Assembly: GCA_035913415.1 (NCBI GenBank)
Contig: JAMIIV010000207.1
Location: 23,498-87,497, forward strand
Reading direction: 5' to 3'
From: Fibrobacteria bacterium
GTDB taxonomy: Bacteria > Fibrobacterota > Fibrobacteria > UBA5070
DNA length: 64,000 bases
Both the position numbers and the translations under genes were made by a program. This document shows positions 3,685-58,635 of this stretch, piece by piece. Numbering within the stretch: the first letter of the stretch is position 1; each line of letters starts with the position of its first letter. The notes under the pieces were generated by a model. That model was given only the letters and a program-made list of their open reading frames with translations. It was not told the DNA's origin and made no database searches.

Positions 3685-5592
3685 TCAGAACACCCAGGTG
3701 AGCGCGAACCCGGACGCCCCCAACACGGCGAGGGAGCCGGCCACCCAAGCGTTGCCGCGAGCGTCCCGTTCGTCGGCGCGCGCTTGGTCGTAGCGTGCCT
3801 TGGGCACGGCGAAGTCGGATTCCGCCGAACGGTAGGCGTCCTGGGCTCGTTGCGCCTCGTCGGAGGCTTCGGCGGCCTGCTGGACGTACCACCCCGCGGC
3901 GACGCCGGCCACCAGGGCGGCGCCTCCGCTGAAGACCCGGAAGAAGGTGCGCACCCGCTCCCGACGCCGGGCCTGGACTTCGGGAGACAGGGGGAGCGAG
4001 GCGTAGAAGCTCGTGGTCAGTCCGGCCGTCAGGGAGAGATCGCGCTCCCAGGGGACCCGATCCGGAGCCTGCACCACCAGACGGTGCGGCCCGGGCTCCA
4101 GTGAGTCGGAGGACCAGACCCAACTCACCACCTGCGACTCGACCCGATTTCCGTCGATCGTCCGATGCCGGGTGGCTTCCGGCATCATCGCACCCAGGGA
4201 GGTGCCGTCGAGGGTGATGCGGGCCTCGTTGCCCGTCCGCACGCGCAAGGACGAGAATCGACTTTCCAAACGGGCGTCGACCATGGTCTCGTCACCTTTG
4301 CGCAGGAAGATCTCCCGGCGCCAATCCTGTTTGCCGGGCGCACGCACCGTGACCACGCGGCGCCCCGGCGCAAGGGTGTCGATCCGCATCGGGACACGGC
4401 CTCGCGGTTGCTCGTCGATCCAGACCTCGGCCTCGGCGGAGGCGCTGAAGAACACGCCCGCGAAGCGGCGCAGGGGCTCCAGAGTTTCGGTGGCCCCCTG
4501 GCGGATCTCCACGTCCCGGTCCAGGGTGTCCCACATCGGGTGGTGCAACACCACCTTCCAGCGCCCCGGCGGCAGGGCGATGGGATCGACCCCCGCATGG
4601 GCCCGCAGGGTGTCGCGCCGGTGGATCAGGAGCAACGCGGCTTCGGGAGCCGGATCCAGGACCAGATACCCCGCCGGACGCAGACGGACCTTCAGGCTCG
4701 TGGGACGGTCGAGCACCAGGGAGGCCGTCACGACGGTGTCCAGCCAACCCGCCTTGCGCAGATGCACCTGGTGCGAACCCACCAGCAGGGAATCGAGTTT
4801 CAGGGGAGTGGTGCCCAACTCGCGACGGGTTCTGTCATCCGGGAAGACCGCGGCCCCCGACGGCTCCGAGAACACCTTGAGGGACGACATCCCGCTGTCC
4901 AGTTGGAGCTCGATCCGCTTCAGATCGTCGCGTTGCAGGTGCACCGATTGCGCCCCCCGCCGCGTGGCGGTGCGCGCTTCCAGGAGATGTACCCCGGCCG
5001 GCAAACCCTCCAGCAGGAACGGACTGCGCCCGAGCACGCGTTTCCCATCCAGGAACAGGACGGCGGTCGTGTCGGAGAGTTCCACCTGGAGGTCGCCGGC
5101 CCCCACCTCGGTGGATTCCCGCTGGCGCGCCACCAACGCGCCTTGCGCCAGCCGCTCCCCGAGCCGGGGCACCGAGACCGCGAGCAGTTCGTCCACCGAC
5201 AACGCCCCATCCTGGCTGGCGTCGAAGAGCACCTCGCCCGACTGCACATCCAGGATGCGGGCCGCCAGCACGTACTGGTCGCCGATCTTGCCCACGGTCC
5301 CCACCACCATGCGGTCGACGGCCAGCAACCGCCCGATCTCGACCGCGCACTCGCCCCGCTCGCAGGCGCCGCTGGCCTGGAAGGCCTGCTCCTTCAGGAT
5401 GCGATCCATCTCGGAACGCTCCAGGACCCGGACCTTCCCCGACTGCAACAGGACGGCCCGCAGCCGCTCGGAGAGGATCGCGGCTTCGTCGCGACCGAGC
5501 CCTCGCGGACGGAGGTCTTCCACCGCCAGCAAGGGCATCTGGGCCGCGCGGGCCAGGCCCACGAACATCAGGAACACGAACAGGAACTTCAT
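3685..5592 (-). CDS. PEGA-domain repeat protein with signal peptide and C-terminal transmembrane segment
   Basis: Start chosen at MKFLFVFLMFVGLARAAQ, a signal peptide. It has several PEGA-like repeats (for example FSEPSGAAVFPDDRTRRELGTTPL). A hydrophobic stretch AALVAGVAAGWYV lies near the C-terminus. Confidence 0.6.
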   Translation of the reverse strand: MKFLFVFLMFVGLARAAQMPLLAVEDLRPRGLGRDEAAILSERLRAVLLQSGKVRVLERSEMDRILKEQAFQASGACERGECAVEIGRLLAVDRMVVGTVGKIGDQYVLAARILDVQSGEVLFDASQDGALSVDELLAVSVPRLGERLAQGALVARQRESTEVGAGDLQVELSDTTAVLFLDGKRVLGRSPFLLEGLPAGVHLLEARTATRRGAQSVHLQRDDLKRIELQLDSGMSSLKVFSEPSGAAVFPDDRTRRELGTTPLKLDSLLVGSHQVHLRKAGWLDTVVTASLVLDRPTSLKVRLRPAGYLVLDPAPEAALLLIHRRDTLRAHAGVDPIALPPGRWKVVLHHPMWDTLDRDVEIRQGATETLEPLRRFAGVFFSASAEAEVWIDEQPRGRVPMRIDTLAPGRRVVTVRAPGKQDWRREIFLRKGDETMVDARLESRFSSLRVRTGNEARITLDGTSLGAMMPEATRHRTIDGNRVESQVVSWVWSSDSLEPGPHRLVVQAPDRVPWERDLSLTAGLTTSFYASLPLSPEVQARRRERVRTFFRVFSGGAALVAGVAAGWYVQQAAEASDEAQRAQDAYRSAESDFAVPKARYDQARADERDARGNAWVAGSLAVLGASGFALTWVF

Positions 5593-5748: not shown

Positions 5749-8052
5749 TCAGAGTCCCGGGGCGAACACGGTGGACGAACCGGCCGCGCAGCGAATCCGC
5801 ACCACGGTCGAACCCTCCCGCCGTGGCAAGGGGATCCGGGTTTCCTGGGCCTCCAGGACGACCTCGCGACTCCAGAGGCGCCGACCACCGAGATCGAATT
5901 CCTCCAGGATCGCGGGTCCCGCCACGACCGAACGCACGCAGGCGACCCGACCTCGGAGGACGAGATGGATGGCCTCCGAACCCTGTGCCCCACCACCCCG
6001 GCTTCGGACGGGTTCCTGGATCGCGACCGCATACCCGAAACTGGCGTGTGTCGCCGAAGCCTGCAGGATCCAACCCTCCGCCGACCCCGCCGAGGGCAGG
6101 ACCGACAGCGAGAACGCAGTGATGGCCGACCCGAGGACCGGACTCTGCCAGAGAGGATCGGGGCTGTCCAGAGTCAGAATCCCCAACCGTCCTGCGGAGG
6201 TGGCGTACGCGTAGAGCGGCGCCGTCGAATCGCTGCCCGGCAGCAGGACGAGTTGTTCGATCGGAGCGCCCACCGCGTAGCGGCGAGTCCACACCCGCGC
6301 TCCGGTGCGGCGCGACCACGCGAAGAGGGTGGTGTCCAGGTCGGCGACCACCACGTCGGAAATTCCGCTGGGCGGGTTGGGCAGGAGCGCGAACGCACCA
6401 CTGGCCCTGGTCTGGCTGGGGAGTCGCACGGCCTTGGCGGCAGAGGAGTCGAACACCCAGACGCCACCGTTCTCCCACTGGGTGGGAGGCGAGCCGATCA
6501 CGAGATCGATCGAATCGATGTGGCGCAAACGGGCGATGGTTCCCGTGGTGAGCTGCCGATAGACCGAGGGCGACGAGCGTTTCCAGATCACGGAATCCAG
6601 CTCGTTGCGCAACTGGAGTTGGCCGTTGTGGGTCAGATGTGGCTCGCTGCGAGAGGCTCCCCCGTCCAGCAGGGTGGACCAGACCGCATAGGATTCCGGA
6701 GCGCGCCGCAGATCGGCCGTGACGAATTGCGAGGTATCGGACAGAAGCAGGGCCGTGCGCGCGTCAGATCCCGGTCGAACCTCCTTGCGCACGTAGCTGC
6801 CCGGCAGAAAACGAGCACCCCGGCTCGCCCCTGAACTGTCCAGGGACAACACGTAATCCTCGATGGCGACCAGGATCCTCCTTCGGCCTTCCTCGTCGAG
6901 GACCGAACTGGAGGGGAGAACGGGCAAACGGTGCCCCGGGCTGCGCCAGACCACTCGGCGACGGGAGGCGTCGGCCATCACCAACTGGTCGTCGGCGGTC
7001 GTGCCAACGTCGCCGGCCCAGACGACCTTCGCCTTCTTGCCCGTCCCGATCGGCCCCACCCACAACCCCCAAGCTCCCGAATTGGGGTTGGGGGTCTTCC
7101 AGTTTTCCGACGAATCCGGACCCAGGCGGTACAAATCACCCGATTGGTTGTCGACCACGAACAGGCGGTCCGGCCCACCCAGGCTCTCGGGCGCCACCGC
7201 GACCGCATCGAAATAGCCACCGTCGGCCTCCAAGGACCACAACCGCTCGCCGGTGGCGGCACGGAATCCGACCACCCTGCCGCTGTCGGCCACGATCTCG
7301 TCCAAGCCGTCCTGATCCAGGTCGCCCAGATGGACTCGGATGCCCCAGGGGAGTCGTCCAGGCCGTCTCCCCAGACTGTCGAAGCCCGTGCCGCGCCAGC
7401 GCCGAAGGATCCCGTTCGGCTCGACCAAGTCGATCGAATCGCGGTGGAGGGGGTGTCCCAGGGCGACCGCCGCGGCACTGGCCAACGACGCACGTCCCTT
7501 CTCGCGGAACTGGTGGTCGAGGAACAGAATCTGTCCCCGCGTCCGTTGGTCGTCCCCGCTCAGGCACACGATCTCCTCAGCCCCATCGTGGTCGATGTCG
7601 ACCAGATCGATCCTGCGGACGCCGTCCAGTGAATCCCCCCGGACGGACAGCGACCGAGGTACGAGGGAATCTCCCTCCAAGAGCAGCAGGCGTCCATCGG
7701 AGCGTCCCAGAAGGATGCGCAGACGGCCATTCTGCGGAGGCAGACTGCGCAGGGCACTGGCACCGATCTCTCCACCCGCCCCCCAGTACCGGGGCATCGG
7801 AACCAGCGTGGTATCCCCTTCTTCCGAACAAAAGATCTGAACGATGTTGCCACCCGTGGTCCATCCCCCGTAGATGCCGTCGTTGGACGCCACCGCAAGG
7901 CAATGTCTGCCATCGGAGAGCGTGACCGAGTCCATGCCTCCGACGCCGGGCATGGCACCGGTGAAGCCGATGTTCCAGAGCGGACGGACATCGAGCCGAG
8001 AAGGGGCCGAGGGAATGGCACAGGCAAGGACGAGGGCAACGAGGCTGATCAT
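5749..8052 (-). CDS. FG-GAP/beta-propeller repeat secreted protein with a putative T9SS C-terminal sorting domain
   Basis: Start at MISLVALVLACAIPSAPS, a signal peptide; the start position is frame-consistent. It carries repeated DxDxDG-like motifs (DLVDIDHDGAEEIV, LGDLDQDGLDEIV) typical of FG-GAP/VCBS repeats. The C-terminal approximately 60 aa resemble a Por-secretion tail (FDLGGRRLWSREV...TVVRIRCAAG). Confidence 0.6.
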   Translation of the reverse strand: MISLVALVLACAIPSAPSRLDVRPLWNIGFTGAMPGVGGMDSVTLSDGRHCLAVASNDGIYGGWTTGGNIVQIFCSEEGDTTLVPMPRYWGAGGEIGASALRSLPPQNGRLRILLGRSDGRLLLLEGDSLVPRSLSVRGDSLDGVRRIDLVDIDHDGAEEIVCLSGDDQRTRGQILFLDHQFREKGRASLASAAAVALGHPLHRDSIDLVEPNGILRRWRGTGFDSLGRRPGRLPWGIRVHLGDLDQDGLDEIVADSGRVVGFRAATGERLWSLEADGGYFDAVAVAPESLGGPDRLFVVDNQSGDLYRLGPDSSENWKTPNPNSGAWGLWVGPIGTGKKAKVVWAGDVGTTADDQLVMADASRRRVVWRSPGHRLPVLPSSSVLDEEGRRRILVAIEDYVLSLDSSGASRGARFLPGSYVRKEVRPGSDARTALLLSDTSQFVTADLRRAPESYAVWSTLLDGGASRSEPHLTHNGQLQLRNELDSVIWKRSSPSVYRQLTTGTIARLRHIDSIDLVIGSPPTQWENGGVWVFDSSAAKAVRLPSQTRASGAFALLPNPPSGISDVVVADLDTTLFAWSRRTGARVWTRRYAVGAPIEQLVLLPGSDSTAPLYAYATSAGRLGILTLDSPDPLWQSPVLGSAITAFSLSVLPSAGSAEGWILQASATHASFGYAVAIQEPVRSRGGGAQGSEAIHLVLRGRVACVRSVVAGPAILEEFDLGGRRLWSREVVLEAQETRIPLPRREGSTVVRIRCAAGSSTVFAPGL

Positions 8053-8117
8053 AAAAGCTCCGGGAATGGATCGATGATAGGAATCCGTTCCCCCGGTGCC
8101 AGCGTCCTCCGGTCTGA

Positions 8118-8744
8118 TCAGGCCAGCGCGCCGCGGGCGCCGCCCGCACCCCCCAGCAAGTGGAACTCCTCCCCCGGCGTCAGGACCGGGAGCAGATGCA
8201 GGATGTCGCCCCGCATGGCAAGCAGGATGCCCAGATAGGTGCGCAGATTGCGGGCGAACTCCGCGAAGATCCCGGCCGTACGCGAGACCGGGGGCGGCAT
8301 CCGTTCCGCCAAGTGCGCCGCGAAGCCGTAGTAGGCACTGGCGCGATCGGCGAGATTGTTCTCGGTGATCTGGTAATAACGCCCCACCTGCCGGCCCTGC
8401 AAGCCATCCCACAACCCCAGATGCAGCAGATAGCGGTCGGCCGCCGTGCGGTAGCCGTCCAGGCGTTCCCGTGGACTTCTCATCTTCGATGTCTTGTCGG
8501 CCACGTCCATGTCCAGACGCTCTCCTTGGCGATCCACCTCCAGGAGCCACGGCGCTTGCGCCATGTGCGCCAGAAGCGAGGCCAGGTAGATCGTCGCCGC
8601 CGGATCCTCTTCGAAAAGGACGTCCCGTTTTTCGCGTTCCTTCCGCGCGTCCAGGATTCGTTCCACGAACCACCCGAACAGGTTTTGTTGTCCGATGTCG
8701 ACCAAGTCCATGAGAGCCTCCTCCCGCGAACACTCCGCATCCAT
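8118..8744 (-). CDS. Hypothetical protein
   Basis: Protein-like composition with no recognised motif. It lies between the amylase and the FG-GAP gene on the same strand. Confidence 0.35.
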   Translation of the reverse strand: MDAECSREEALMDLVDIGQQNLFGWFVERILDARKEREKRDVLFEEDPAATIYLASLLAHMAQAPWLLEVDRQGERLDMDVADKTSKMRSPRERLDGYRTAADRYLLHLGLWDGLQGRQVGRYYQITENNLADRASAYYGFAAHLAERMPPPVSRTAGIFAEFARNLRTYLGILLAMRGDILHLLPVLTPGEEFHLLGGAGGARGALA

Positions 8745-48824: not shown

Positions 48825-49901
48825 CTATTCCGTGACGGCGGGGTAGCGCCAGGCGTCTTCGCCTTCGCCATCGGCCTCTTGTTGGTCGGAGACGTCGATG
48901 TTCCGCCCCGTGGCCTTGAACTCCTTGACCATGGCGTCCGAGAGGTAGTGGTAGTGCAGATCGAGCCGCTTCAAACGTTGGACACCGGGGGAATCCAGAA
49001 GGGCGCGACCTCCAACGTCGGTGAGCGTGCCCTGCGACAGGTCGAGCACGTCGAGCTGCCCGAGGACTTCGGCCCCGGCGATCGCCGCGGCGATTTCGTC
49101 GGCGATTTCGCTGTCGACCAGTCCCAGGCTCCGCAGCGAAGGAAACAAGCCCTTGCTGAAGAACGGGCGCAGGTCGTCGAGGGAGCCGTCGAAGCCGTAT
49201 TCGTCGACACCCAGATACAGCTCCAGATGCTGGAGCGCCGGCAGGCGCGCCGCCGCCAGCAGATGGAGAATGACCTTGGGCAATCCACCGCAGCGGATCA
49301 CGAGCTTGGTCAGCGAATCGTGGGCGATGGGGTCGCGGCTGAGCACCAAGCTGCTCGAACCCTGGATGCGCAAGGATTCCAGACCCGGGAAGGCCGCCAG
49401 GACCCCCGTGTAATCGGCCTGGATGATCCAGGAGATCTCGCATTCCTCCGAGTCCATGTCTCCGACGATGATTTCCTTGAGGCCCGGCAGGCGCGCCGCG
49501 TGACGGCAGAGCAGATCGAGAGCGGCCTGGGGGGAATTCTCCTGCGGCTCCTCCCACGAGGCGATCACCAGGGAATCGACGCCGCTGGCCCCATCGCTTT
49601 CCAGGAACGCTTCCATCTTCGACAGGAGGGTCTTGCCCTCTTCCGCTTCGTCGTAGCTTACCGCGAGGCGTCGCGAGATCTTCTTCTCGCTGGCCTGGGC
49701 CACCTCGACGTAACCCTTCTTGACCTTCTCGGCGACCAGCTTGTCGCGCTCCTTGGTCGCCTTTTCTGGCGATTCGCAGGTGGTGGTCTTGGCCTGCCCT
49801 GCGGTCCCGATCCGACCGAAGGTGACGGTGAACGCGGACCCTTCCAGTTCAATCTGCCAGAATTTGTGCGAGGTGCCGTCTTTGAATTCGAGGTAGGTCA
49901 T
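48825..49901 (-). CDS. WGR-domain plus leucine-rich-repeat protein (STM4015-family-like)
   Basis: Start at MTYLEFKDGTSHKFWQIELEGSAFTVTFGRIG, a WGR domain. C-terminal LRR-like repeats (LxxLxLxxN/D patterns such as LKRLDLHYHYLSD). Confidence 0.7.
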   Translation of the reverse strand: MTYLEFKDGTSHKFWQIELEGSAFTVTFGRIGTAGQAKTTTCESPEKATKERDKLVAEKVKKGYVEVAQASEKKISRRLAVSYDEAEEGKTLLSKMEAFLESDGASGVDSLVIASWEEPQENSPQAALDLLCRHAARLPGLKEIIVGDMDSEECEISWIIQADYTGVLAAFPGLESLRIQGSSSLVLSRDPIAHDSLTKLVIRCGGLPKVILHLLAAARLPALQHLELYLGVDEYGFDGSLDDLRPFFSKGLFPSLRSLGLVDSEIADEIAAAIAGAEVLGQLDVLDLSQGTLTDVGGRALLDSPGVQRLKRLDLHYHYLSDAMVKEFKATGRNIDVSDQQEADGEGEDAWRYPAVTE

Positions 49902-50102
49902 CGGGATCGGCCTTCCGGAGGGGGATAAGGAGGATCTGGCTGAGGCCGCCGCTGTCGAGAACGAGCGACTGTTGCAGCCGGGGTCAGGGACCTCGAATAT
50001 AGGCTCGCGCACACCCGCATCGAGAGCCCTGGTGCCCGCGGCCGAAAACGGGCTCACCGCGCCTGGAGGAGGGCCCGAGCCCTTGCCGAACCGAGGATGG
50101 AA

Positions 50103-50717
50103 TCAGGCGCTGCAGGGAGTGCAATGGTTGTCGACCCACGGGTGCCACCCGCCGTCGAACCAGACGAAGTACATGCGTAGCTGGTCCCACCCCTTGGCGA
50201 CAAAGACGACCTGCATCACCCGCCAAGGCTTGGGCACGGGAAGCCACGGCACCACGAACTCAAGGTCGCCATCCTTGCGCCAGTGGCCGAATTTCGGGAG
50301 ATCGCGGGGCTGGACCGGATCCCAGAAAAAGCCCTGGTGGCCGCGATACGGGCCGGCGTCGTCACAAGGATTCTTCACGGCGGGGATACCCCGACGGATG
50401 GTGATTCGGGTGTCCGGCGGTATGACCTCCGTTCCGTCCATGATATCCTTCCCCACCTGCGTCGACGGGTAATCCAGAACACAGCTCGCCCCCGGGTTGT
50501 CGGCCGTGCGGTAGGGAAGTTTGGGATGAATCCACCGACTGGCCTCCTTGCGGCTTCGGCGGTAGGTCTCCAGGTATTCCTTCAGAAACTGCGGGAAGAC
50601 CGAATCGGGGTCTCGCCCGATCGAGTCCCGCAGGACGATGCGTGGTTCGGGATCGCGCGGAGCCACGATCGCCGTGTCCGAGGCTCCCGCCAGCAACAGG
50701 AGAAGAGAGAGGATCAT
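50103..50717 (-). CDS. Small secreted hypothetical protein
   Basis: Start at MILSLLLLLAGASDTAIVA, a signal peptide. The ATG overlaps the rtcR stop (ATGA). Cys-containing. WHPW near the C-terminus. Confidence 0.45.
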   Translation of the reverse strand: MILSLLLLLAGASDTAIVAPRDPEPRIVLRDSIGRDPDSVFPQFLKEYLETYRRSRKEASRWIHPKLPYRTADNPGASCVLDYPSTQVGKDIMDGTEVIPPDTRITIRRGIPAVKNPCDDAGPYRGHQGFFWDPVQPRDLPKFGHWRKDGDLEFVVPWLPVPKPWRVMQVVFVAKGWDQLRMYFVWFDGGWHPWVDNHCTPCSA

Positions 50718-52327
50718 GGACGCCTCGGGGAGGAAGAGTCGTGCGCTTCGGACCAGGAAAGTCCGAAGCGGCCAAGGTACTTGCGCAGCCGATCGGAATC
50801 GTTGGGGCTTTCCTTGCGCTCGCGCGAAACGGAGAACAGGCATCGCCCCGCCTCTGCCATCGTGGCCGACGAACGGCAGACTCCCAGCACGTGCGCCAGC
50901 TGCACCCGATCGAACTCGTCCAGCCGTCCCACGCGGGACGGGACGACGGATTCCGTCACGGGATCGCCGGCGCGGATCCACGAGCGTTCCAGACGTTCGA
51001 TTTCTTCGTCCACGTTCGGCTTGGTGATGCGGCCGTCCGACAGCAGCGCCATGCGCGTCACCGCCGCGGCCAGGTCGCGGAAATTCCCCTTCCACGAAGC
51101 ACGCGCCGAGGTCCCCCACTCCAGGAAGCGCTCGCGCGCCTCGCGGGTGATCGAAACCTGGCGTCCTTCGCGTGCACGCAACCGTTCCAGCTCGTACTCC
51201 AGATTGGGCTCCAGGTCGGCCGGCCGGTCGGCCAGTCCGGGCAGGGCGAAGGTCCACAACTGGATGCGCGCCAGGAGGTCTTCGCGGAATCGCCCGCGCG
51301 CCACCTCGGCCCCCAGATCCTTGTGCGATCCGGCCAGAAGCAGGAAATCGCTCTCGACTTCCCGATCCGAACCCACGGGGCGAAAGCGTTTCTCTTCCAG
51401 GGCCACCAGAAGCATCGCCTGCTCTTCCAGCCCCAGCTCGCCGATCTCGTCCAGGAACAGGATCCCCCGGTCGGCCGCACGCAGATAACCGGCCCGATCC
51501 CCTACCGCCCCGGTGAAGGCTCCTTTCACGTGCCCGAAGAGGGCCGACATCGCCCCTTCGCCGGCCAGGGTGGCGCAATTCACCGCGACGAACTCGCCGG
51601 CCACCAGCCCCCGCTGGCGGCGCAGTTCGTGGATGCGCCGCGCCAGGCTCGATTTGCCCGATCCGGTGGGTCCACCCAGCAGGATCGGATCGCGCGACCG
51701 GGAGGCCACGACTTCGATGCGCTCGATCAGGCGGTTGAACGCCTTGTCGCGGGTGCGGATGCCGTCCTTGAGGAAGTCGCGCCGGTCGCGGATGTCTTCG
51801 CGGAAGCGCGAGGCGATGCGGTCGTACCTGGACAGATCGAGATCGATGAGGGAGATGCGGCCGGGCAGCGATTTGTCGTTGCCCTCGGGGGGACTGGTCT
51901 GCAGGAGACGCCCCGGCAGGAAACGCGCCTCGGTGAGCAGGAACAGGCAGATCTGGTGGACATGGCTGCCCGTGGTGATGTGCACCAGCAGGTCTTCCCG
52001 CGCAGGATCGAAGGCCAGGCGGCGCGACAGGTCCAGGAGCACCGAGTAGACCGCCTCGAAGTCCCACGGATCGTGGGCGGGCAGGATCTCGCAGACCACG
52101 TCCATCCCGGGGCGCAGTTGGCGCAGATCGGAGGCCACCACCTCACCCAGCTCGCGGAACTTCTCCTGGAACAGCAGATGGTAGCGATCGAAGGGAGGGT
52201 CGTCGTGCCGGGCCAGATCGACCGTGGGACGCCACCGATCCCAACGTTTACGCCCCATGCCCCCGTCGAGGACCGTGCCGAGGATACCGATGCCCACGAG
52301 GGGCCTGGAAGTCGTTTTGCGCGTCAT
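50714..52327 (-). CDS. rtcR: Sigma-54-dependent transcriptional regulator RtcR (CARF domain, AAA+ and HTH)
   Basis: Start at MTRKTTSRPLVGIGILGTVLDGG. Strong similarity throughout to E. coli RtcR as recalled, including Walker A GPTGSGKSSLARRI and the GAFTGA motif. Confidence 0.85.
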   Translation of the reverse strand: MTRKTTSRPLVGIGILGTVLDGGMGRKRWDRWRPTVDLARHDDPPFDRYHLLFQEKFRELGEVVASDLRQLRPGMDVVCEILPAHDPWDFEAVYSVLLDLSRRLAFDPAREDLLVHITTGSHVHQICLFLLTEARFLPGRLLQTSPPEGNDKSLPGRISLIDLDLSRYDRIASRFREDIRDRRDFLKDGIRTRDKAFNRLIERIEVVASRSRDPILLGGPTGSGKSSLARRIHELRRQRGLVAGEFVAVNCATLAGEGAMSALFGHVKGAFTGAVGDRAGYLRAADRGILFLDEIGELGLEEQAMLLVALEEKRFRPVGSDREVESDFLLLAGSHKDLGAEVARGRFREDLLARIQLWTFALPGLADRPADLEPNLEYELERLRAREGRQVSITREARERFLEWGTSARASWKGNFRDLAAAVTRMALLSDGRITKPNVDEEIERLERSWIRAGDPVTESVVPSRVGRLDEFDRVQLAHVLGVCRSSATMAEAGRCLFSVSRERKESPNDSDRLRKYLGRFGLSWSEAHDSSSPRRP

Positions 52328-52417
52328 TCTATCGCACAGGATAGATCCTATGCCTTGCGATATCAATGCACCCCGATCCGGGCACACGTTTCTCCGACGG
52401 ATCCGCGCGACAACGAT

Positions 52418-52433
52418 TGGCACGCCCTTCGCA
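52418..52433 (+). promoter_or_regulatory. Sigma-54 (-24/-12) promoter TGGCAC-N5-TCGCA
   Basis: ttGGCACgccctTCGCA differs from the consensus TGGCAC-N5-TTGCA at one position. It lies divergent from rtcR and about 20 nt upstream of the tRNA-like RNA, as expected for an RtcR-dependent promoter. Confidence 0.5.
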
Positions 52434-52453
52434 CTTGAAGTGGAATACCGAAA

Positions 52454-52671
52454 GGGGAGGTAGCTCAAACGGAAGAGCACCGGAAAAACGTTGGACAACG
52501 GCACTGTAACAGGCACCGCGAACCGCAAGGTCGCCGGGCAGGGTTGCGGAGGCACCTATAGCGGCCTCGAAGGGTCATCACTCCCCCGAGGTGGGTGAAG
52601 CAGCAAGGGAAGCGCGTTTCCCAAGAGCCTGGCTTGTCGCGGCGATGCGGGTTCGATCCCCGTCCTCTCCA
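52454..52671 (+). ncRNA. tRNA-like structured RNA (about 218 nt) at the 5' end of the rsr operon; candidate Y-RNA-like or processed leader
   Basis: The 5' end GGGGAGG-TA-GCTCAAACGGAAGAGC gives a 7-bp acceptor 5' strand and a canonical D-arm. The 3' end GCGGG-TTCGATC-CCCGT-CCTCTCC-A gives a T-arm and a complementary acceptor 3' strand. An approximately 165 nt insert sits where the anticodon arm should be. Confidence 0.4.
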
Positions 52672-52703
52672 CTTTCTCGAATTCCACAGCAAGGATCATC
52701 ACC

Positions 52704-54275
52704 ATGCCCAATCTCGAACTGTTCAAGACCATCGCGGGCAGACTCATCCCCGCCACCGATACCCGCAACGCAGCGGGCGGCGTTGCGTACACCCGCTCCC
52801 CCAAGTCGGAGCTGGCCCAGCTGGCGATGACCGGATGCCTCAACGGCACCTTCCATGCCCAGGCCGAAGTGCAACTGGAGGCCATCCTCAAGCGCACTGC
52901 GGAGATCGATCCCGCCTGGATCGCCAAGCTGGCCCTGGTGGCCCGCAAGAAGGGCCACATGAAAGACGTTCCCGCCCTGCTGCTGGCGACCCTCGCCGTC
53001 CGCGACCGGGACAGCGCGGCGACCGCGTTTCCCCTGGTGATCGACAACGCCCGGATGCTGCGGACCTTCGTACAGATCGTCCGCTCGGGAGCCGCGGGAC
53101 GCAAGTCCTTCGGCTCGGCGCCCCGGCGCTGGATCCGGCAGTGGCTGGAATCACGGACTCTCGAACAGCTCCTGGACGCTTCGGTAGGCAACCAGCCCTC
53201 GCTCGCCGACATCGTGAAGATGGTCCATCCCCGGCCCGACGGTCCCGAGCGCGAAGCCTTCTACGGCTGGCTCTTGGGCAAGGAGGTCGCGACGGACACG
53301 CTTCCCGAGCGGGTGCGGGCCCTGCTGGCCTGGCGCGACGGAGACCGGGAAACGGTCCCCGAAACCGCGTTCGAACTCCTGACCGATCGGCCCCTGTCCA
53401 CCGGATCCTGGGCGGCCATCGCCCGCCGCGCCGGCTGGCAGTGGACGCGCATGAACCTCGCCACCCTCGCGCGGCACGGCGTGTTCGCCGATCCGGCGAT
53501 GGTGGACCTGGTGGCCGCCCGGCTGCGGGATCCGTCTCTGATCGCCCGGTCGCGCGTCTTTCCCTACCAGATCCTGTCCGCCTGGAAGGCGGCCGGGACC
53601 GACCTCCCCTCTGTCGTCCGCGACGCCCTCCAGGACGCGCTGGAACATGCGGTAGAGAACGTTCCCGCCTTCGCGGGGAAGGTGGTCGTCCTGCCCGACG
53701 TCTCCGGCTCCATGCACAGCCCCGTCACCGGATTCCGTCCGGGTGCGAGCTCGGCCACGCGCTGCGTGGACGTCGCCGCCCTCTTCGCCGCCGCCATCCT
53801 GCGGCGCAACCCTTCCGCCACCGTCATCCCCTTCAAGGAAGACATCGTGAACCTCGTCCTGAATCCTCGCGATTCCATCAGCACCAACGCCGAGCGCATG
53901 GCTTCCGTGGGCCCCGGCGGGACCGATTGTTCGGCCCCGCTGCGGCACCTGAACCAGCGCAAGGCCAAGGCCGACCTGGTCGTATTCGTCTCCGACAACG
54001 AGTCGTGGATGGACCCCGCCCGGGGACGCTGCACCACCACCCTGCGGGAATGGGAAACCTTCCGCGCCCGCAATCCCGGCGCCCGGCTGGTGTGCATCGA
54101 CCTGGCCCCCAACACCACGGTGCAGGCGCCCGATCGGCCCGACATCCTCAACGTAGGAGGCTTCTCCGACCAGGTCTTCGGACTGGTGGGGGAATTCGCC
54201 TCCGGCGGTCTGGAAGCCGGCGCCTGGGAGACGCGCATCGAACGGGAGGGAGAACGCCTCTTGAACGCGGCGTAG
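52704..54275 (+). CDS. rsr: Ro60 ortholog Rsr (TROVE domain plus vWA domain)
   Basis: Protein-like composition across about 520 aa. The architecture recalls bacterial Ro (TROVE-like helical N-region, DVSGSM-type vWA MIDAS motif VVLPDVSGSMHSP). Confidence 0.8.
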   Translation: MPNLELFKTIAGRLIPATDTRNAAGGVAYTRSPKSELAQLAMTGCLNGTFHAQAEVQLEAILKRTAEIDPAWIAKLALVARKKGHMKDVPALLLATLAVRDRDSAATAFPLVIDNARMLRTFVQIVRSGAAGRKSFGSAPRRWIRQWLESRTLEQLLDASVGNQPSLADIVKMVHPRPDGPEREAFYGWLLGKEVATDTLPERVRALLAWRDGDRETVPETAFELLTDRPLSTGSWAAIARRAGWQWTRMNLATLARHGVFADPAMVDLVAARLRDPSLIARSRVFPYQILSAWKAAGTDLPSVVRDALQDALEHAVENVPAFAGKVVVLPDVSGSMHSPVTGFRPGASSATRCVDVAALFAAAILRRNPSATVIPFKEDIVNLVLNPRDSISTNAERMASVGPGGTDCSAPLRHLNQRKAKADLVVFVSDNESWMDPARGRCTTTLREWETFRARNPGARLVCIDLAPNTTVQAPDRPDILNVGGFSDQVFGLVGEFASGGLEAGAWETRIEREGERLLNAA

Positions 54276-54597
54276 GGCGGAGTGGAAAGGCGCGACGAAT
54301 ACCGCGGCGGTCTACACTTGGACCTGGCATCCATTCCGGAGCGCGGGGGAAGATCCCGCAGGAGCCGCAAGGCTCCCGAGGCGTCGCCAGAGGACGCACC
54401 AGGCGGCGAAAGCCGGCAGACCACGCAATCCTTGTCGCCGCGCCCCCTCCATCCTCCCAACGCCCCTGACCGGGGGCGCCCGAGACGAATACCGGACGGG
54501 AGTCCATCCTCCACCTCCGCCGCGCCGCCCCGGGAGGGGCGGCACCCCGACTCCGGGGCAGGCACCTCCCCCCACCCTTGTCGTCCTGGGCGCTCCT

Positions 54598-54705
54598 TCT
54601 TTGGCGCGGAAGAATGCTGGACGGGAATCCATTGGTCAACACCTCCGTTTGCAAGAACGGTGGTGTGGGTTCAAGTCCCAAATCCCTCCACACCTTGTCT
54701 TCCGC
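54598..54705 (+). ncRNA. Candidate small structured RNA (second Y-RNA-like element)
   Basis: Terminal helix GGCGCGGAAGA / TCTTCCGCGC enclosing about 88 nt. The enclosed region has a T-loop-like GGTTCAAGTCC hairpin (GGTGTGG...CCACACC) and a CCGTTtgcaagaAACGG hairpin. CTTTTTCC follows. Confidence 0.25.
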
Positions 54706-54750
54706 GCTTTTTCCCTTTCCCGGGGCCCTCGAGGGGGCCCCACCCCTGTG

Positions 54751-54900
54751 CCCCCCCTTATGTCGAATGCCGGACAGGTGTACATCACACGTGTCGGTGC
54801 CGGGTTCGATTCCCGGCGCGGCCACTCTTCGGCCGCGTAGCTCAGTGGTAGAGCAACCCCGCTTCGCGGGCCACTTGTCCACCCTTGTCGACATTCGGGG
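54751..54900 (+). ncRNA. Candidate Y RNA (YrlA-like) with permuted tRNA-like module
   Basis: Terminal stem CCCCttATGTCGA / TCGACATtcGGGG with a 2x2 internal loop. The interior holds a T-arm (CCGGG-TTCGATT-CCCGG), an acceptor-like stem CGCGGCC-ctcttcg-GCCGCG capped by a loop, and a D-arm (GCTC-AGTGGTAGA-GAGC). Confidence 0.5.
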
Positions 54901-54924
54901 ATACTTCCTTTGGAGACACATCCC

Positions 54925-56148
54925 ATGAACCATCCCGAAATCTTCCAGCCCTCCCGTGGCGGCCTCGTGAAGGCCTGGACCCGCGGCGTCTTGTTCGAGG
55001 ACGAAGCCCGCCGCCAGGTGGAAAACGCCGCGAGCCTCCCCTTCATCCACAAGTGGGTCGCCATCATGCCCGACGTGCACGCCGGGAAGGGCGCCACGGT
55101 CGGATCCGTGATCCCCACCCTCGACGCCATCGTTCCCGCGGCCGTGGGTGTCGACATCGGTTGCGGCATGATGGCCGTGCGCACCTCGCTGAATGCCCGC
55201 GACCTTCCCGACAATCTGGCCTCCCTCCGGTCGGCCATCGAACGCGCCGTCCCCCATGGGCGCACCGACAACGGGGGCCGCAACGACCGCGGCGCCTGGA
55301 ACACACCTCCCGAGGCCGTCCGTTCCGCATGGGACTCCATGAGCCCCATCTTCGACCAGATCCGCGAGAAGCACCCGAAGATCGGGGCCTCCAACTCCTG
55401 GAACCACCTGGGAACCCTCGGGACGGGCAACCACTTCATCGAAGTCTGCCTGGACACGACGGATTCCGTCTGGGTGATGCTGCACTCCGGATCGCGCGGC
55501 GTGGGCAACCGGATCGGGTCGTACTTCATCGAGAAGGCCAAGCGCGAGATGGAACGCTGGCACATCCACCTTCCCGACGCCGACCTCGCCTACCTGCCGG
55601 AAGGCTCGCAGCATTTCGGCGACTACGTGAAGGCCCTGAAGTGGGCGCAAGGCTTCGCGATGAAGAACCGGGAACTGATGATGGACGCCACCCTGGCGGC
55701 CCTGGCGTCGCTGCCCGGGATCCCGCCCTTCGAACGCACCCTGGACGCGGTGAACTGCCACCACAACTACGTCGACCGCGAGCACCACTTCGGCAAGGAC
55801 GTGTGGGTCACCCGCAAGGGTGCCGTGCGCGCCCGCGATGGCGAAATGGGGATCATCCCCGGCTCCATGGGAACCCGTTCGTACATCGTGCGCGGCAAGG
55901 GCAACCCGGACAGTTTCTGTTCGTGCTCGCACGGCGCGGGTCGGGCGATGAGCCGTACCGAAGCCAGACGCCGCTTCACCCTGGCAGACCATGAACGCTG
56001 GACCGCGGGAATCGAATGCCGCAAGGACGCCGAGGTGATCGACGAGACCCCCGGCGCCTACAAGGACATCGACGCCGTGATGGAGGCGCAGAAGGACCTC
56101 GTGGAGGTCGTGCACACGCTCCGGCAGGTGGTCTGCGTGAAGGGCTGA
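54925..56148 (+). CDS. rtcB: RNA-splicing ligase RtcB
   Basis: Start at MNHPEIF. Matches E. coli RtcB as recalled (MPDVHAGKGATVGSVIPT, GVDIGCGM, GTLGTGNHFIE, NCHHNY, SCSHGAGR). Confidence 0.9.
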   Translation: MNHPEIFQPSRGGLVKAWTRGVLFEDEARRQVENAASLPFIHKWVAIMPDVHAGKGATVGSVIPTLDAIVPAAVGVDIGCGMMAVRTSLNARDLPDNLASLRSAIERAVPHGRTDNGGRNDRGAWNTPPEAVRSAWDSMSPIFDQIREKHPKIGASNSWNHLGTLGTGNHFIEVCLDTTDSVWVMLHSGSRGVGNRIGSYFIEKAKREMERWHIHLPDADLAYLPEGSQHFGDYVKALKWAQGFAMKNRELMMDATLAALASLPGIPPFERTLDAVNCHHNYVDREHHFGKDVWVTRKGAVRARDGEMGIIPGSMGTRSYIVRGKGNPDSFCSCSHGAGRAMSRTEARRRFTLADHERWTAGIECRKDAEVIDETPGAYKDIDAVMEAQKDLVEVVHTLRQVVCVKG

Positions 56149-56173
56149 GGGGGTTCCGGGACTCGAAAGGTAG

Positions 56174-56743
56174 GTGGCCAGGACTACCTTCGAGAGACCG
56201 ATGCAGACTCCGCACCCTTCCCGAACTCGCGTCACGATCGTCGCCACCGCGGCGATGCTGGTGTGCGTCGGCTGCGCCCCCGCCCCCATCCTGGTTCGGA
56301 CCTCGGTCACCCAACCCGATGTATTCTTGCGCCCGGACTCTTCCTGCCCGATCCCCGCGATCCGGTTTCGCGCCGACGGCTCGATCTCCCCCGTGCAGGG
56401 GACGGACGGCCATCTCGATCGTTGCCTGATCTCGTTCCCGCAGCCCGATCGACGAGGCGTGGTGGTCGAGCTTTCGGGCGTGAGTGATCCCTGCCGCACG
56501 GGAACGCTGCGCCGCGCGTGGATGGTGGCCCGATCCGACTCTGATTCCCTGATCCTCGGCACGCCCACGCCATCCTCCCGCGCCGAGATCCGAACCGAGC
56601 CCGACGTTCCGGACGATCCCGAGCTGCGCTGCCGGGTTCTCGATTCGAGCCTGGCCTTGGTCGAGGTCGTGATGTCGGATTCCGTCGTGGCACGCACCTG
56701 TTTCGCCGACGACAAAACGGGATTCCGAAGGTGCCTTCCGTGA
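56174..56743 (+). CDS. Hypothetical lipoprotein
   Basis: Signal peptide/lipobox TIVATAAMLVCVGC. The start may be at MQTPHPS (56201). Confidence 0.45.
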   Translation: MARTTFERPMQTPHPSRTRVTIVATAAMLVCVGCAPAPILVRTSVTQPDVFLRPDSSCPIPAIRFRADGSISPVQGTDGHLDRCLISFPQPDRRGVVVELSGVSDPCRTGTLRRAWMVARSDSDSLILGTPTPSSRAEIRTEPDVPDDPELRCRVLDSSLALVEVVMSDSVVARTCFADDKTGFRRCLP

Positions 56744-57447
56744 AGCCCTCCCACCTTCTCGCGGCGGGGATCGTCGCGGCCTTCGTGCTGCAGGGTTGCG
56801 CGACCCTCGTCGCCCTGTCCACGGCCGAGCGCATCCCGTTGCGGGAGGAGCGGATCCATCGTTGGGACTCGACCGGATCACAAGACCGAATGCTCCGCGC
56901 GACGCTGGAGGGGCGGACCGCGGACAGTGCCGGGCCGTCGCTGTGGAAATTCGAAGGTGCCGACATCTGGCTTCTGTGGCCGTCGTCGGGCAACCCCGTT
57001 GTGTTGTCGGACTCCCGCGATTCGCTGGACCACCACCTCAAGACGCGCCCGGGATGGGACACGACGGGAGTCGACACGATCGATGTCTACCTGATGTCCG
57101 ACACCACCGCCCGCGTCCCACCCGCCCTGCTGTCCGGCGCCGGTCGCCAAGCCATCGCGCTTTGGAGTCGGCCACGCTCCTCCGTGGACTGGAAGCCCGC
57201 CTGGGCCCTGCGCCTTCGGGACCGGACCCCGGTGATGGAGCCCCTGGTCTGGATCGGGCACCCGCGATTCAACCCTCTCGTGTGGGGGTGGGTGGTCGTG
57301 CCTGGTGGCGTCGCGGTCGACGTCGCGGCCTGGCCCCTGTACGTGGCAGCCTGGCATGTGGCGCAACCCGCGCTTCTTCCCGTGGCGGGCGGCATTCTCG
57401 CACTCGGATTCCTCGTCGCCTACCTCATGCGGGACTGGCACTTCTAG
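56731..57447 (+). CDS. Hypothetical lipoprotein with C-terminal hydrophobic segment
   Basis: N-terminal LAAGIVAAFVLQGC lipobox. C-terminal PVAGGILALGFLVAYLM. Confidence 0.45.
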   Translation: MPSVKPSHLLAAGIVAAFVLQGCATLVALSTAERIPLREERIHRWDSTGSQDRMLRATLEGRTADSAGPSLWKFEGADIWLLWPSSGNPVVLSDSRDSLDHHLKTRPGWDTTGVDTIDVYLMSDTTARVPPALLSGAGRQAIALWSRPRSSVDWKPAWALRLRDRTPVMEPLVWIGHPRFNPLVWGWVVVPGGVAVDVAAWPLYVAAWHVAQPALLPVAGGILALGFLVAYLMRDWHF

Positions 57448-57505
57448 GCGGCTTCCCACGGACAATCCGCTGGCCCAGCGCACCCGCGACGAGCCTCCGC
57501 TCGGC

Positions 57506-58156
57506 TCACTCCGCCAGGTTTCGGCGATTCCGGGCCCGCCACCACCCGTGCAACCCATCCACCAGGCCCCACAGAACAGATCCCGCCACGGCCAGGGCCA
57601 TGTCCTTGTGGGCGTCCCAGGGATCGCCCTGCTGCCCGTTGTATCCCTCGGCGGCATCGGCCGAAAGGAGCAGCGTCAACGCCCATTCGAACAGTTCGTA
57701 GGCCAGGCTCGCGGCGGCCACCCATTGCACCACCAGGAGTCTGGCCGTGCGGGGCCGCGTCACCACGCGACGGAATCCGTCCATCAGGCGCGGCGACACC
57801 AGCACGCCGAACAGAAGATGTACCAGCCGGTCGAAATGGTTGCGCTCCCACCCGAACACCTCCGACAAGGTGTGCCCCGCGAGACTCCGGGCCCAGGTGT
57901 CGTAGGGCACGTACGAGTAGATCCAGCGCGCCGCGAACGCGTGCAGGAACATGAACCCCATCAGACAGCGGGAACTGGCCGTCGAGGCCGCACCTCGCGC
58001 GATTCCCGAAGCGATCCAGGCCGCGACCACGAGGGTCCCCGCGTGCTGCAGCGGCATCATCTCCGGATAGGGACTACCGATCGCCAGCGCCAGGCTTCCG
58101 GCCGACGCCACACCCAACTCGATCCAGGACTTCCGAAGCGAGGGCTTGGTGCTCAT
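57506..58156 (-). CDS. DUF2238-family (YjdF-like) inner-membrane protein
   Basis: Multi-TM protein. The FGWERNHFDRLVHLLFG region matches my recollection of DUF2238. Confidence 0.55.
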   Translation of the reverse strand: MSTKPSLRKSWIELGVASAGSLALAIGSPYPEMMPLQHAGTLVVAAWIASGIARGAASTASSRCLMGFMFLHAFAARWIYSYVPYDTWARSLAGHTLSEVFGWERNHFDRLVHLLFGVLVSPRLMDGFRRVVTRPRTARLLVVQWVAAASLAYELFEWALTLLLSADAAEGYNGQQGDPWDAHKDMALAVAGSVLWGLVDGLHGWWRARNRRNLAE

Positions 58157-58635
58157 GGAGCGTCGGGCATCTCGAAGACCTTCAGCGACTTGGCCATGCG
58201 CCCGATTTTGCCGTCGAAGAGCGGCCGATCCTTGTCCTGGTACTCGAGCTGGAAGACCACCCAGCGCCCTTGGGCGAGCTGCCGTCGTTCATAGACGATG
58301 CGCCCCTTGCGAAAGCCCGACACCACGCACCAGTCCTTCTTGGTCGTGCGCAGCACGACGGAATCGATTTCGGACGCATCGAAATCGCACGCCTCACCGA
58401 GGGTTTCCTCGGCGGCGTTCCACATTCCCCAGACGCGGATCTCCGCTCCCGTCGAACCCCGCCACGTCCGCCCATCGTCGTTTTCCGGCGGAGGCATTTC
58501 CTTCAATCCCGCCGGCACGTCCAGGCAGAAGGCGAAGCGCGCGTTGCAGTGGTTCACGTAGTCCTCGCGGGCGCCGGACGCCGAGGCAAGCAATGCGAGG
58601 GACAACAGGAATGCGGACAAGGCAGGAACAGACAT
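58153..58635 (-). CDS. Secreted hypothetical protein
   Basis: Start at MSVPALSAFLLSLALLASASG, a signal peptide. The upstream 5' part of the ORF is low-complexity and was rejected. Confidence 0.45.
   Translation of the reverse strand: MSVPALSAFLLSLALLASASGAREDYVNHCNARFAFCLDVPAGLKEMPPPENDDGRTWRGSTGAEIRVWGMWNAAEETLGEACDFDASEIDSVVLRTTKKDWCVVSGFRKGRIVYERRQLAQGRWVVFQLEYQDKDRPLFDGKIGRMAKSLKVFEMPDAP

Follow-up and report, generated by a model that had tools for sequence, protein, structure and literature searches.

A divergent YrlA-class Y RNA predicted between rsr and rtcB of a Fibrobacteria bacterium, and a second tRNA-like RNA family at the same locus

The DNA analysed here is a stretch of 64,000 nucleotides (the window) from a Fibrobacteria bacterium (GenBank assembly GCA_035913415.1, contig JAMIIV010000207.1, positions 23,498 to 87,497 of the forward strand). 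It carries an RNA repair operon, in which rtcR is divergent from a single putative unit comprising a sigma-54-type promoter, rsr and rtcB, and the 649-nt spacer between rsr and rtcB is tiled by four structured modules (Table 1). An earlier note on this DNA, made from the sequence alone, had placed a Y RNA between rsr and rtcB; both genes are supported by Pfam, and the element in question is the last of the four modules. It is 147 bases long and begins 479 nt past the rsr stop codon on the same strand, that is, within ~4 kb of a Ro60/TROVE gene. It ends 24 nt ahead of the rtcB start codon, with a GGAG ribosome-binding site a few bases after its closing helix. We conclude that this element is very probably a YrlA-class bacterial Y RNA, and a divergent member of that known family.

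The fold of the element runs in the order terminal helix, second helix (helix 2), variable (V) arm, T arm, loop-closed acceptor stem, D arm and extra hairpin. In the terminal helix CCCC (54754-54757) pairs with GGGG (54897-54900) and AUGUCGA (54760-54766) with UCGACAU (54888-54894), the two segments being separated by a UU/UC 2x2 internal loop. The motif GNCGAAN0-1G, which is the proposed Rsr determinant of the YrlA family (Chen et al. 2014, PMC4201824), is present as GUCGAAUG atop the terminal helix, near the 5' end. At the start of the variable region the expected (Y)UA(Y) is found as G-UAC (54780-54783), where the first Y is a G that is paired in helix 2. All of the helices are intact in the window copy, as are the T loop UUCGAUU, the D loop AGUGGUA with its GG, and the UA linker. 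A 153-nt stretch covering the element has a minimum free energy (MFE) of -74.3 kcal/mol, a value (z = -4.84) that was not reached in any of 200 dinucleotide shuffles.

Table 1. Features of the rtcR-rsr-rtcB locus and anatomy of the YrlA-class element. Positions are those of the window; CM R1 and CM R2 are covariance models described in the text.
Feature	Position	Strand	Evidence
rtcR (sigma-54 activator, 537 aa)	50714..52327	-	Pfam RtcR 219 bits and Sigma54_activat
Sigma-54-type promoter TGGCACGCCCTTCGCA	52418..52433	+	motif match
219-nt unpermuted tRNA-like RNA, promoter-rsr interval	52454..52672	+	sequence, fold, CM R2, context
rsr (Ro60 orthologue, 523 aa)	52704..54275	+	Pfam vWA_Ro60 70.9 bits, TROVE 29.7 bits
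Module 1: terminal stem GGCGCGACGA/UCGCCGCGCC, multi-hairpin interior	54287..54449	+	R1 21.3 bits, E 1.5e-5
Module 2: terminal stem, then GGA(C)GGGAG helix with bulged C	54474..54595	+	R1 12.8 bits, E 0.0036; RNAalifold, 5 orthologues
Module 3: 10-bp terminal stem, bulged helix 2, T-arm-like hairpin UGGG-UUCAAGU-CCCA	54599..54712	+	R1 19.4 bits, E 5.1e-5
Whole predicted YrlA-class Y RNA (module 4)	54754..54900	+	RF02553 match, CM R1, covariation
Terminal helix, 5' strand CCCC-uu-AUGUCGA	54754..54766	+	partner 54888-54900
GUCGAAUG, GNCGAAN0-1G motif, proposed Rsr contact	54762..54769	+	sequence; motif definition PMC4201824
Helix 2, 5' strand GGACAGGUG	54772..54780	+	partner 54872-54880
V arm, weak hairpin CAUCAC-ACGU-GU(C)GGUG	54783..54799	+	fold constrained to family structure
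T arm CCGGG-UUCGAUU-CCCGG	54800..54816	+	Rfam alignment, MFE fold
Acceptor-like stem, loop-closed: 7 bp CGCGGCC/GGCCGCG, loop ACUCUUC	54817..54837	+	fold, covariation
UA linker, equivalent of tRNA U8-A9	54838..54839	+	sequence; conserved in 10-relative alignment (A2)
D arm GCUC-AGUGGUA-GAGC, loop GG the counterpart of tRNA G18-G19	54840..54854	+	Rfam alignment
Extra hairpin CCCGC-UUC-GCGGG between D arm and helix 2, clade-specific	54858..54870	+	folds, relatives
Helix 2, 3' strand CACUUGUCC	54872..54880	+	covariation
CCUUGUC motif, then terminal helix 3' strand UCGACAU-uc-GGGG	54883..54900	+	sequence, constrained fold
rtcB (RNA ligase, 407 aa)	54925..56148	+	Pfam RtcB 441.7 bits

Rfam model RF02553 (YrlA) matches 54760-54897 across its entire length (model positions 1-114) with 47.1 bits and an E-value of 2.6e-9, and YrlA is the sole Rfam family that matches this interval over its whole length. 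A search for Rsr homologues returned 7971 at E <= 1e-20; the closest are 94, 91, 81, 76, 70, 70 and 68% identical and all come from metagenomes, a scan of GTDB genomes having found Rsr relatives solely at 52-58% identity. Contigs of the closest relatives keep divergent rtcR, rsr, a spacer and rtcB, with rsr-rtcB spacers of 220-820 nt. A covariance model (CM), R1, was built on ten YrlA-type spacer sequences from close relatives and searched against 88 rsr loci (individual loci are labelled L001 and so on). It gave 203 matches at E < 0.001, all 203 of which lie on the rsr strand, and in the 64-kb window it gave one match only, at 54752-54902, with 154 bits. It should be noted that MAFFT with RNAalifold on the 10 relatives missed helix 2, the 3' strands being one column out of register, and that re-alignment to the CM recovered it.

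Covariation was counted over 96 full-length R1 homologues adjoining rsr, to which the homologue counts below also refer. Standard pairs are formed in 94.3% of cells, compared with 71.4% in column shuffles and 35-59% in controls in which the partner strand was slid; both sides have changed in 32 of the 37 pairs, and the covariation score is 0.549 versus 0.160. The alignment was fitted to the CM and absolute pairing numbers are thereby biased towards structure, but the covariation case for the predicted fold is still strong in view of the slid-partner control and of how diverse the pair types are. The check on orthologous loci that the earlier note had proposed came out in favour of its YrlA reading. 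The two segments of the terminal helix (helices 1 and 2 of the count) are 69.6% and 93.2% paired, with 11 of 12 pairs changed on both sides, and helix 2 (54772-54780/54872-54880, helix 3 of the count) is 95.5% paired with 8 of 9 pairs so changed; the stem of the 5' and 3' ends consists of the 93.2%-paired segment and helix 2, which together have 15 compensated pairs out of 17. The T and D arm helices are 99.6% and 100% paired, and the acceptor stem that intervenes between these two stem-loops, as is characteristic of YrlA, is 97.5% paired with all seven pairs changed on both sides. Likewise, the Levitt pair 15:48 covaries (G:C in 58 homologues, A:U in 27), which reproduces the published observation (PMC4201824). 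The GNCGAAN0-1G motif occurs in 70 of the 96, and YUUGUY within the last 45 nt in 76.

Some parts of the structure are variable within the family. The V region ranges from 8 to 25 nt, and an acceptor stem of 7-8 bp is the commonest state (59 homologues), and so not a distinguishing feature of the window copy. At the position of the hairpin that follows the D arm, relatives have CUGC-GCAA-GCAG, GCC-GAAA-GGC or CCCGC-GCAA-GCGGG; only 12 of the homologues have 17 nt or more there, and the hairpin is an expansion particular to this clade.

Most of the anatomy drawn in the earlier note survived this comparison. The T arm is as it had described, the small hairpin CCCGC-UUC-GCGGG is real and covaries among relatives, and the YrlA-type order of T arm, acceptor and D arm, with the terminal helix in the position of the anticodon stem, is upheld by the whole-length RF02553 match and by the covariation; this order is that described for YrlA (PMC4201824). 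The loop-closed acceptor is also present, with 7 bp, one more than in its parse, and so is the D arm, with the loop AGTGGTA and not AGTGGTAGA, which has two extra letters. The pairing of the terminal helix was correctly located together with its 2x2 loop. The view that such a loop is expected of a Ro-binding helix does not hold, however: the mismatch is private to the window copy and not conserved, the terminal helix of L001 being a perfect 13-bp duplex and that of L085 having a one-base bulge. Finally, a first hairpin, CCGGACAGGTGT/ACACGTGTCGG, can form and is part of the MFE structure of the window sequence, but it is absent from the family fold, in which its 5' strand pairs with 54872-54880. 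Because this 5' half is shared, the local hairpin CCGGACAGGTGT...ACACGTGTCGG competes with the conserved helix GGACAGGUG/CACUUGUCC. Single-sequence MFE structures contain the family helix 2 in 74 of the homologues and the local hairpin in two, the window copy and one other. L001 and L085, which are a few bases from the window sequence, fold the family way, and in L002-type sequences helix 2 reads UGUCAGGUC/GACCUGACA, with three compensated positions, and the local-hairpin sequence is absent.

A number of observations weigh against the assignment to YrlA. A default Rfam scan of the whole window at gathering scores, of the kind that the earlier note had suggested, is empty, because the 47.1 bits of the YrlA match, which was obtained with E-value thresholds, are below the RF02553 gathering score of 69 bits. 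Much of the loss of score is due to insertions in the window copy, of 9 nt in the variable region and 10 nt after the D arm. The rsr-adjacent YrlAs of relatives with Rsr 52-58% identical score 69-86 bits, and other syntenic tandem copies (L071, L017, L052 and L067) are sub-threshold too, at 42-68 bits. In the final variable-loop position, where a pyrimidine is expected of a YrlA, G54799 faces G54845, giving G15:G48 and a broken Levitt pair; this is a departure of a single base from the G:C or A:U of 85 homologues, and L001 and L085 have C. The 2x2 mismatch in the terminal helix results from a private GA-to-UU change that is not found in L001, where the uninterrupted 13 bp are formed by CCCCGAAUGUCGA/UCGACAUUCGGGG. 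In addition, the MFE structure of the window sequence prefers the local hairpin over helix 2, and no rtcA was found adjoining rtcB, where Pfam matched none of the reading frames at 56174-56743, 56796-57701 and 57305-58294; the search for rtcA did not go beyond these. The window YrlA is for now a predicted RNA, and its expression, its processing, its binding to Rsr and the pseudouridine 55 and dihydrouridine that mark a YrlA are predictions made from sequence.

The G at position 48 and the terminal-helix mismatch together leave a small chance that the element is slightly degraded, in other words a YrlA paralogue that is non-functional here while the other Y-RNA-like modules, or the copies of relatives, do the work. 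Just three of the homologues have G:G at 15:48, the 91-94% relatives have C at 48, the GA-to-UU change disrupts the terminal helix, and the MFE structure favours a hairpin foreign to the family. Set against this, the family fold (-72.0 kcal/mol) lies only 2.3 kcal/mol above the MFE, the five helices are all fully paired, and the T loop, the D loop, the UA linker and the GNCGAAUG motif are intact; moreover, the rest of the module is near-identical to L001 and L085, while the linker upstream of it varies with indels. We therefore regard decay as improbable.

Less probable again, and in our judgement very unlikely, is that the element is solely a structured 5' leader of rtcB, acting in cis on stability or translation or as a processing signal, with no Rsr-binding RNA released. 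The short distance to the rtcB start codon and its ribosome-binding site would suit such a role, as would the fact that neither a promoter nor a terminator was found between the element and rtcB. However, at least 11 loci (L009, L054, L072 and L006 among them) have homologues upstream of rsr, away from rtcB, and homologues also form tandem arrays of 2-6 copies, which makes a pure cis role unlikely, and the co-transcribed YrlA of Salmonella is a discrete Rsr-bound RNA (PMC4201824, PMC7790460). We give almost no credence to the idea of a permuted or split tRNA gene, or of the acceptor piece of a two-piece tmRNA. It draws on T and D arms that look canonical and on a second Rfam match to the element, tmRNA_permuted (22.3 bits, E 0.022), which covers only the T arm and the closed acceptor; we discounted this match, which spans model positions 36-95 of 213 and is far under the gathering score of 47. 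ARAGORN found no tRNA and no tmRNA in the window, the element has neither an anticodon loop nor a tag-coding piece, its acceptor stem is closed by a loop, and the family that matches it over its whole length is YrlA.

The closest known counterpart of the YrlA-class element is YrlA of Salmonella Typhimurium, which belongs to the rsr-yrlBA-rtcBA operon, where rtcR diverges from rsr and a sigma-54 promoter precedes rsr, the Y RNAs and then rtcB (PMC7790460); the structure of its tRNA-like domain has been reported (10.1101/312249). The window shares this gene order and promoter type, the 5'/3' stem with GNCGAAN0-1G, the succession of V region, T arm, closed acceptor, UA and D arm, and the conserved nucleotides of the T-loop/D-loop elbow. 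It differs in having an acceptor of 7 bp rather than 6, a V arm of 17 nt, G at position 48 and an extra 13-nt hairpin in the interval between D arm and stem, which is an insertion in the Rfam alignment. It also has four Y-type modules rather than two and no rtcA following rtcB. YrlA of M. smegmatis, for which cleavage and CCA addition have been shown, lies upstream of rsr, unlike the window copy, and is not controlled by RtcR (PMC4201824). Yrn1 of Deinococcus radiodurans is likewise an Rsr-bound Y RNA encoded beside rsr, with a T arm and tRNA-like features, but its T and D elements have the opposite order with respect to the ends of the RNA, and its intervening stem-loop is in the position of the anticodon arm and not of the acceptor (PMC4201824).

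The remaining three modules of the spacer gave the next three best R1 matches after the YrlA element when the region 52400-55000 was searched with filters off. They match the model via the terminal stem, a CGAAU(G/A)C loop, helix 2 and the CCUUGUCG strand, and each of the four modules ends in CCUUGUC (54430, 54576, 54693 and 54883). Helix 2 has a bulged C in modules 2 and 3. In the window modules the GNCGAA-like motif is degenerate: modules 1 and 2 have GACGAAUA, module 3 has GAAGAAUG. Orthologues in L001, L085, L086, L087, L002 and L088 keep the stems with compensatory changes, while the linkers between modules vary and contain indels; four pairs of the module 1 terminal stem are compensated in L086, and 5 of 7 pairs of that of module 3, for which the MFE z-score is -4.7. 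Although the individual statistics are modest, we read modules 1-3 as putative additional Y RNAs that resemble YrlB. Like the YrlBs of S. Typhimurium and M. smegmatis they are adjacent to rsr and have a closing 5'/3' stem and a GNCGAA-like motif without a full tRNA-like domain, and the T-arm-like hairpin of module 3 is also a feature of M. smegmatis YrlB; they have no detectable sequence homology to the published YrlBs and are three rather than one. We also noted that modules 1 and 2 both read CGAAUAC (54301-54302 and 54489-54490) where the 91-94% relatives read CGAAUGC; an identical G-to-A substitution at the homologous motif position of two paralogous modules could be a parallel change or the outcome of gene conversion.

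A second tRNA-like RNA is predicted on the other side of rsr. The rtcR-rsr spacer measures ~375 nt in the sub-clade of the window compared with ~130 nt elsewhere, and it contains a 219-nt sequence that reads GGGGAGG-UA-GCUC-AAACGGAA-GAGC-A, then ~190 nt, then GCGGG-UUCGAUC-CCCGU-CCUCUCC-A. This is the normal, unpermuted frame of a tRNA, with a 7-bp acceptor GGGGAGG/CCUCUCC (including G3.U70, and followed by A73), a D arm and a T arm, in which the ~190-nt insert replaces the anticodon arm. In the clade of the window the insert is bounded by a Y-RNA-like stem, CCGCGAA.../...CUUGUCGCGG together with GCCGGGC/GCCUGGC, two pairs of which are compensated in L086. It can be seen from nhmmer and a second covariance model (R2) that full-length relatives exist in 11 of the rsr loci; ordinary tRNAs match the R2 frame end to end with 20-48 bits. 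Variovorax and Undibacterium have weaker relatives, in which the last letters are A-CCA, and in Undibacterium the RNA directly follows the sigma-54 promoter. A metagenome scan with a core motif returned 53 contigs, ~48 of them with a full-length copy, while a 12-mer core-motif scan that allowed two mismatches was too noisy for use. The family is present in about 60 rsr-rtcB loci, and every contig of sufficient length has the RNA on the same strand, between rsr and rtcB. Covariation between sub-types is seen in the acceptor stem, in the T arm and in one helix of the interior (copies of the Acidobacteria type carry U3-A70), and the core is conserved mainly in sequence.

The 219-nt RNA matched no Rfam 15 family, and we found no description of it in the searchable literature. 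Its resemblance to tmRNA and tRNA-Ala extends to the 7-bp acceptor formed by the paired ends, G3.U70, A73, the T arm, a large insert between the D and T sides and, in the betaproteobacterial copies, an encoded CCA. A reading as tmRNA was nevertheless set aside, as it has a regular D arm and no tag reading frame and is recognised neither by ARAGORN nor by the Rfam tmRNA model. A tRNA with a group I intron was rejected, the insert being just ~115-165 nt and without a match to Intron_gpI, as was a relic tRNA 3' fragment left by integration, given that the full frame of acceptor, D and T arms is conserved and covarying.

Three observations at related loci touch on this second RNA. In L091, where the operon is of the Acidobacteria type, a 271-aa open reading frame with a HEPN_AbiV domain (7516-8331, + strand, 37.8 bits) lies between an RNA of the 219-nt type and rtcB; this predicted RNase has the gene of an RNA ligase and that of a tRNA mimic as its neighbours. 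In L017 the Rfam model 'tRNA' matches across the junction of two tandem YrlAs (4723-4841, + strand) with 41.2 bits, above its gathering score. Here the D side of one YrlA and the T side of the next make up an unpermuted tRNA with a long insert, which fits the idea of a dimeric-tRNA origin as well as the architecture of the large RNA. In L052 two Acido-Lenti-1 (RF01687) matches, at 4927-4972 (- strand) and 5069-5114 (+ strand), fall just short of the gathering score of 37, with 36.9 and 36.3 bits; the nearer ends 10 nt before the large tRNA-like RNA at 5124-5316, and the same sequence precedes the RNA in L044 and L051.

The sigma-54 promoter is the only match to its motif in the window, and the same motif is found upstream of rsr in 14 related loci. 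A promoter directly upstream of rsr, as in L002, L087, L088 and L090, is absent in the clade of the window, where it lies ~270 nt further up, ahead of the 219-nt RNA. The interval 52400-56400 contains no match to a sigma-70-like promoter or to a terminator. A single sigma-54 promoter appears to drive the 219-nt RNA, rsr, the three Y-RNA-like modules, YrlA and rtcB, and we infer that the operon is co-transcribed. The start of rtcR was set to the ATG at 52327 by comparison with relatives; the mechanically called reading frame of 613 aa (50714..52555, - strand) over-extends, and its excess runs antisense through both the promoter and the 219-nt RNA.

How such a locus might work can be modelled on studies of S. 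Typhimurium, M. smegmatis and D. radiodurans (PMC4201824, PMC7790460, 10.1101/312249). Nicked tRNAs with 2',3'-cyclic phosphate ends would accumulate and cause RtcR, with sigma-54, to activate a transcript of the operon that contains YrlA, and the Y RNAs would then be cut out of this polycistronic transcript. The stem of the 5' and 3' ends, carrying GUCGAAUG, would bind Rsr, and the distal domain would adopt the L-shape of a tRNA by means of the D-loop/T-loop elbow, the UA linker and the closed acceptor stem. The tRNA-like domain may be the effector or tether end of the molecule, since in the species studied it is recognised by TruB and DusA and links Rsr to partners such as PNPase. Roles proposed for it are to bind a factor that itself binds tRNA, to tether PNPase, or to act as competitor of an anticodon nuclease.

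More tentatively, and as a reading that we think possible rather than likely, YrlA would be one of a set of five RNAs under the single RtcR/sigma-54 promoter. In this set the 219-nt RNA would represent an undescribed class with free acceptor ends, its anticodon arm turned into a Y-RNA-like stem that is capped by a highly conserved core of ~110 nt, and YrlA and the 219-nt RNA would be circular permutations of one design. They would be mimics of tRNA built into the circuit of tRNA damage and repair, serving anticodon or HEPN nucleases, RtcB and RtcR as a substrate, a decoy or a sensor, and on this reading the 219-nt RNA might even be aminoacylated. Should the repair system indeed use the 219-nt RNA as a substrate or sensor, RtcB and Rsr could be studied with a defined RNA that is encoded in the operon.

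The YrlA assignment itself is, in our view, correct and fairly ordinary, and its value is mostly one of annotation: a bona fide YrlA is missed at the Rfam threshold. Many rsr-adjacent tandem Y RNAs, of which there are up to six copies per locus, also fall below the gathering score, so that the Y-RNA content of environmental bacteria is under-called. The operon context, and above all the large tRNA-shaped RNA, merits more attention than the YrlA, which is of modest interest, and deserves follow-up. The locus offers comparative material on the purpose of the tRNA-like domain in bacterial Y RNAs: operons with as many as six Y RNAs, a hairpin on the anticodon-arm side that is particular to the clade, and a second, unpermuted tRNA-shaped RNA family in tight linkage with rsr and rtcB and, in Acidobacteria, with an open reading frame that has a HEPN domain.

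Two further observations concern the neighbourhood of these genes. A WGR-domain protein is encoded at 48825-50057 (- strand), two genes from rtcR. Loci from Pyrinomonadaceae and other Acidobacteria genomes (L008, L009 and L014, also L019, L024, L048, L059, L063, L065, L066, L073 and others) have arrays of ~10-17 tRNA genes immediately upstream of rsr and in its orientation.

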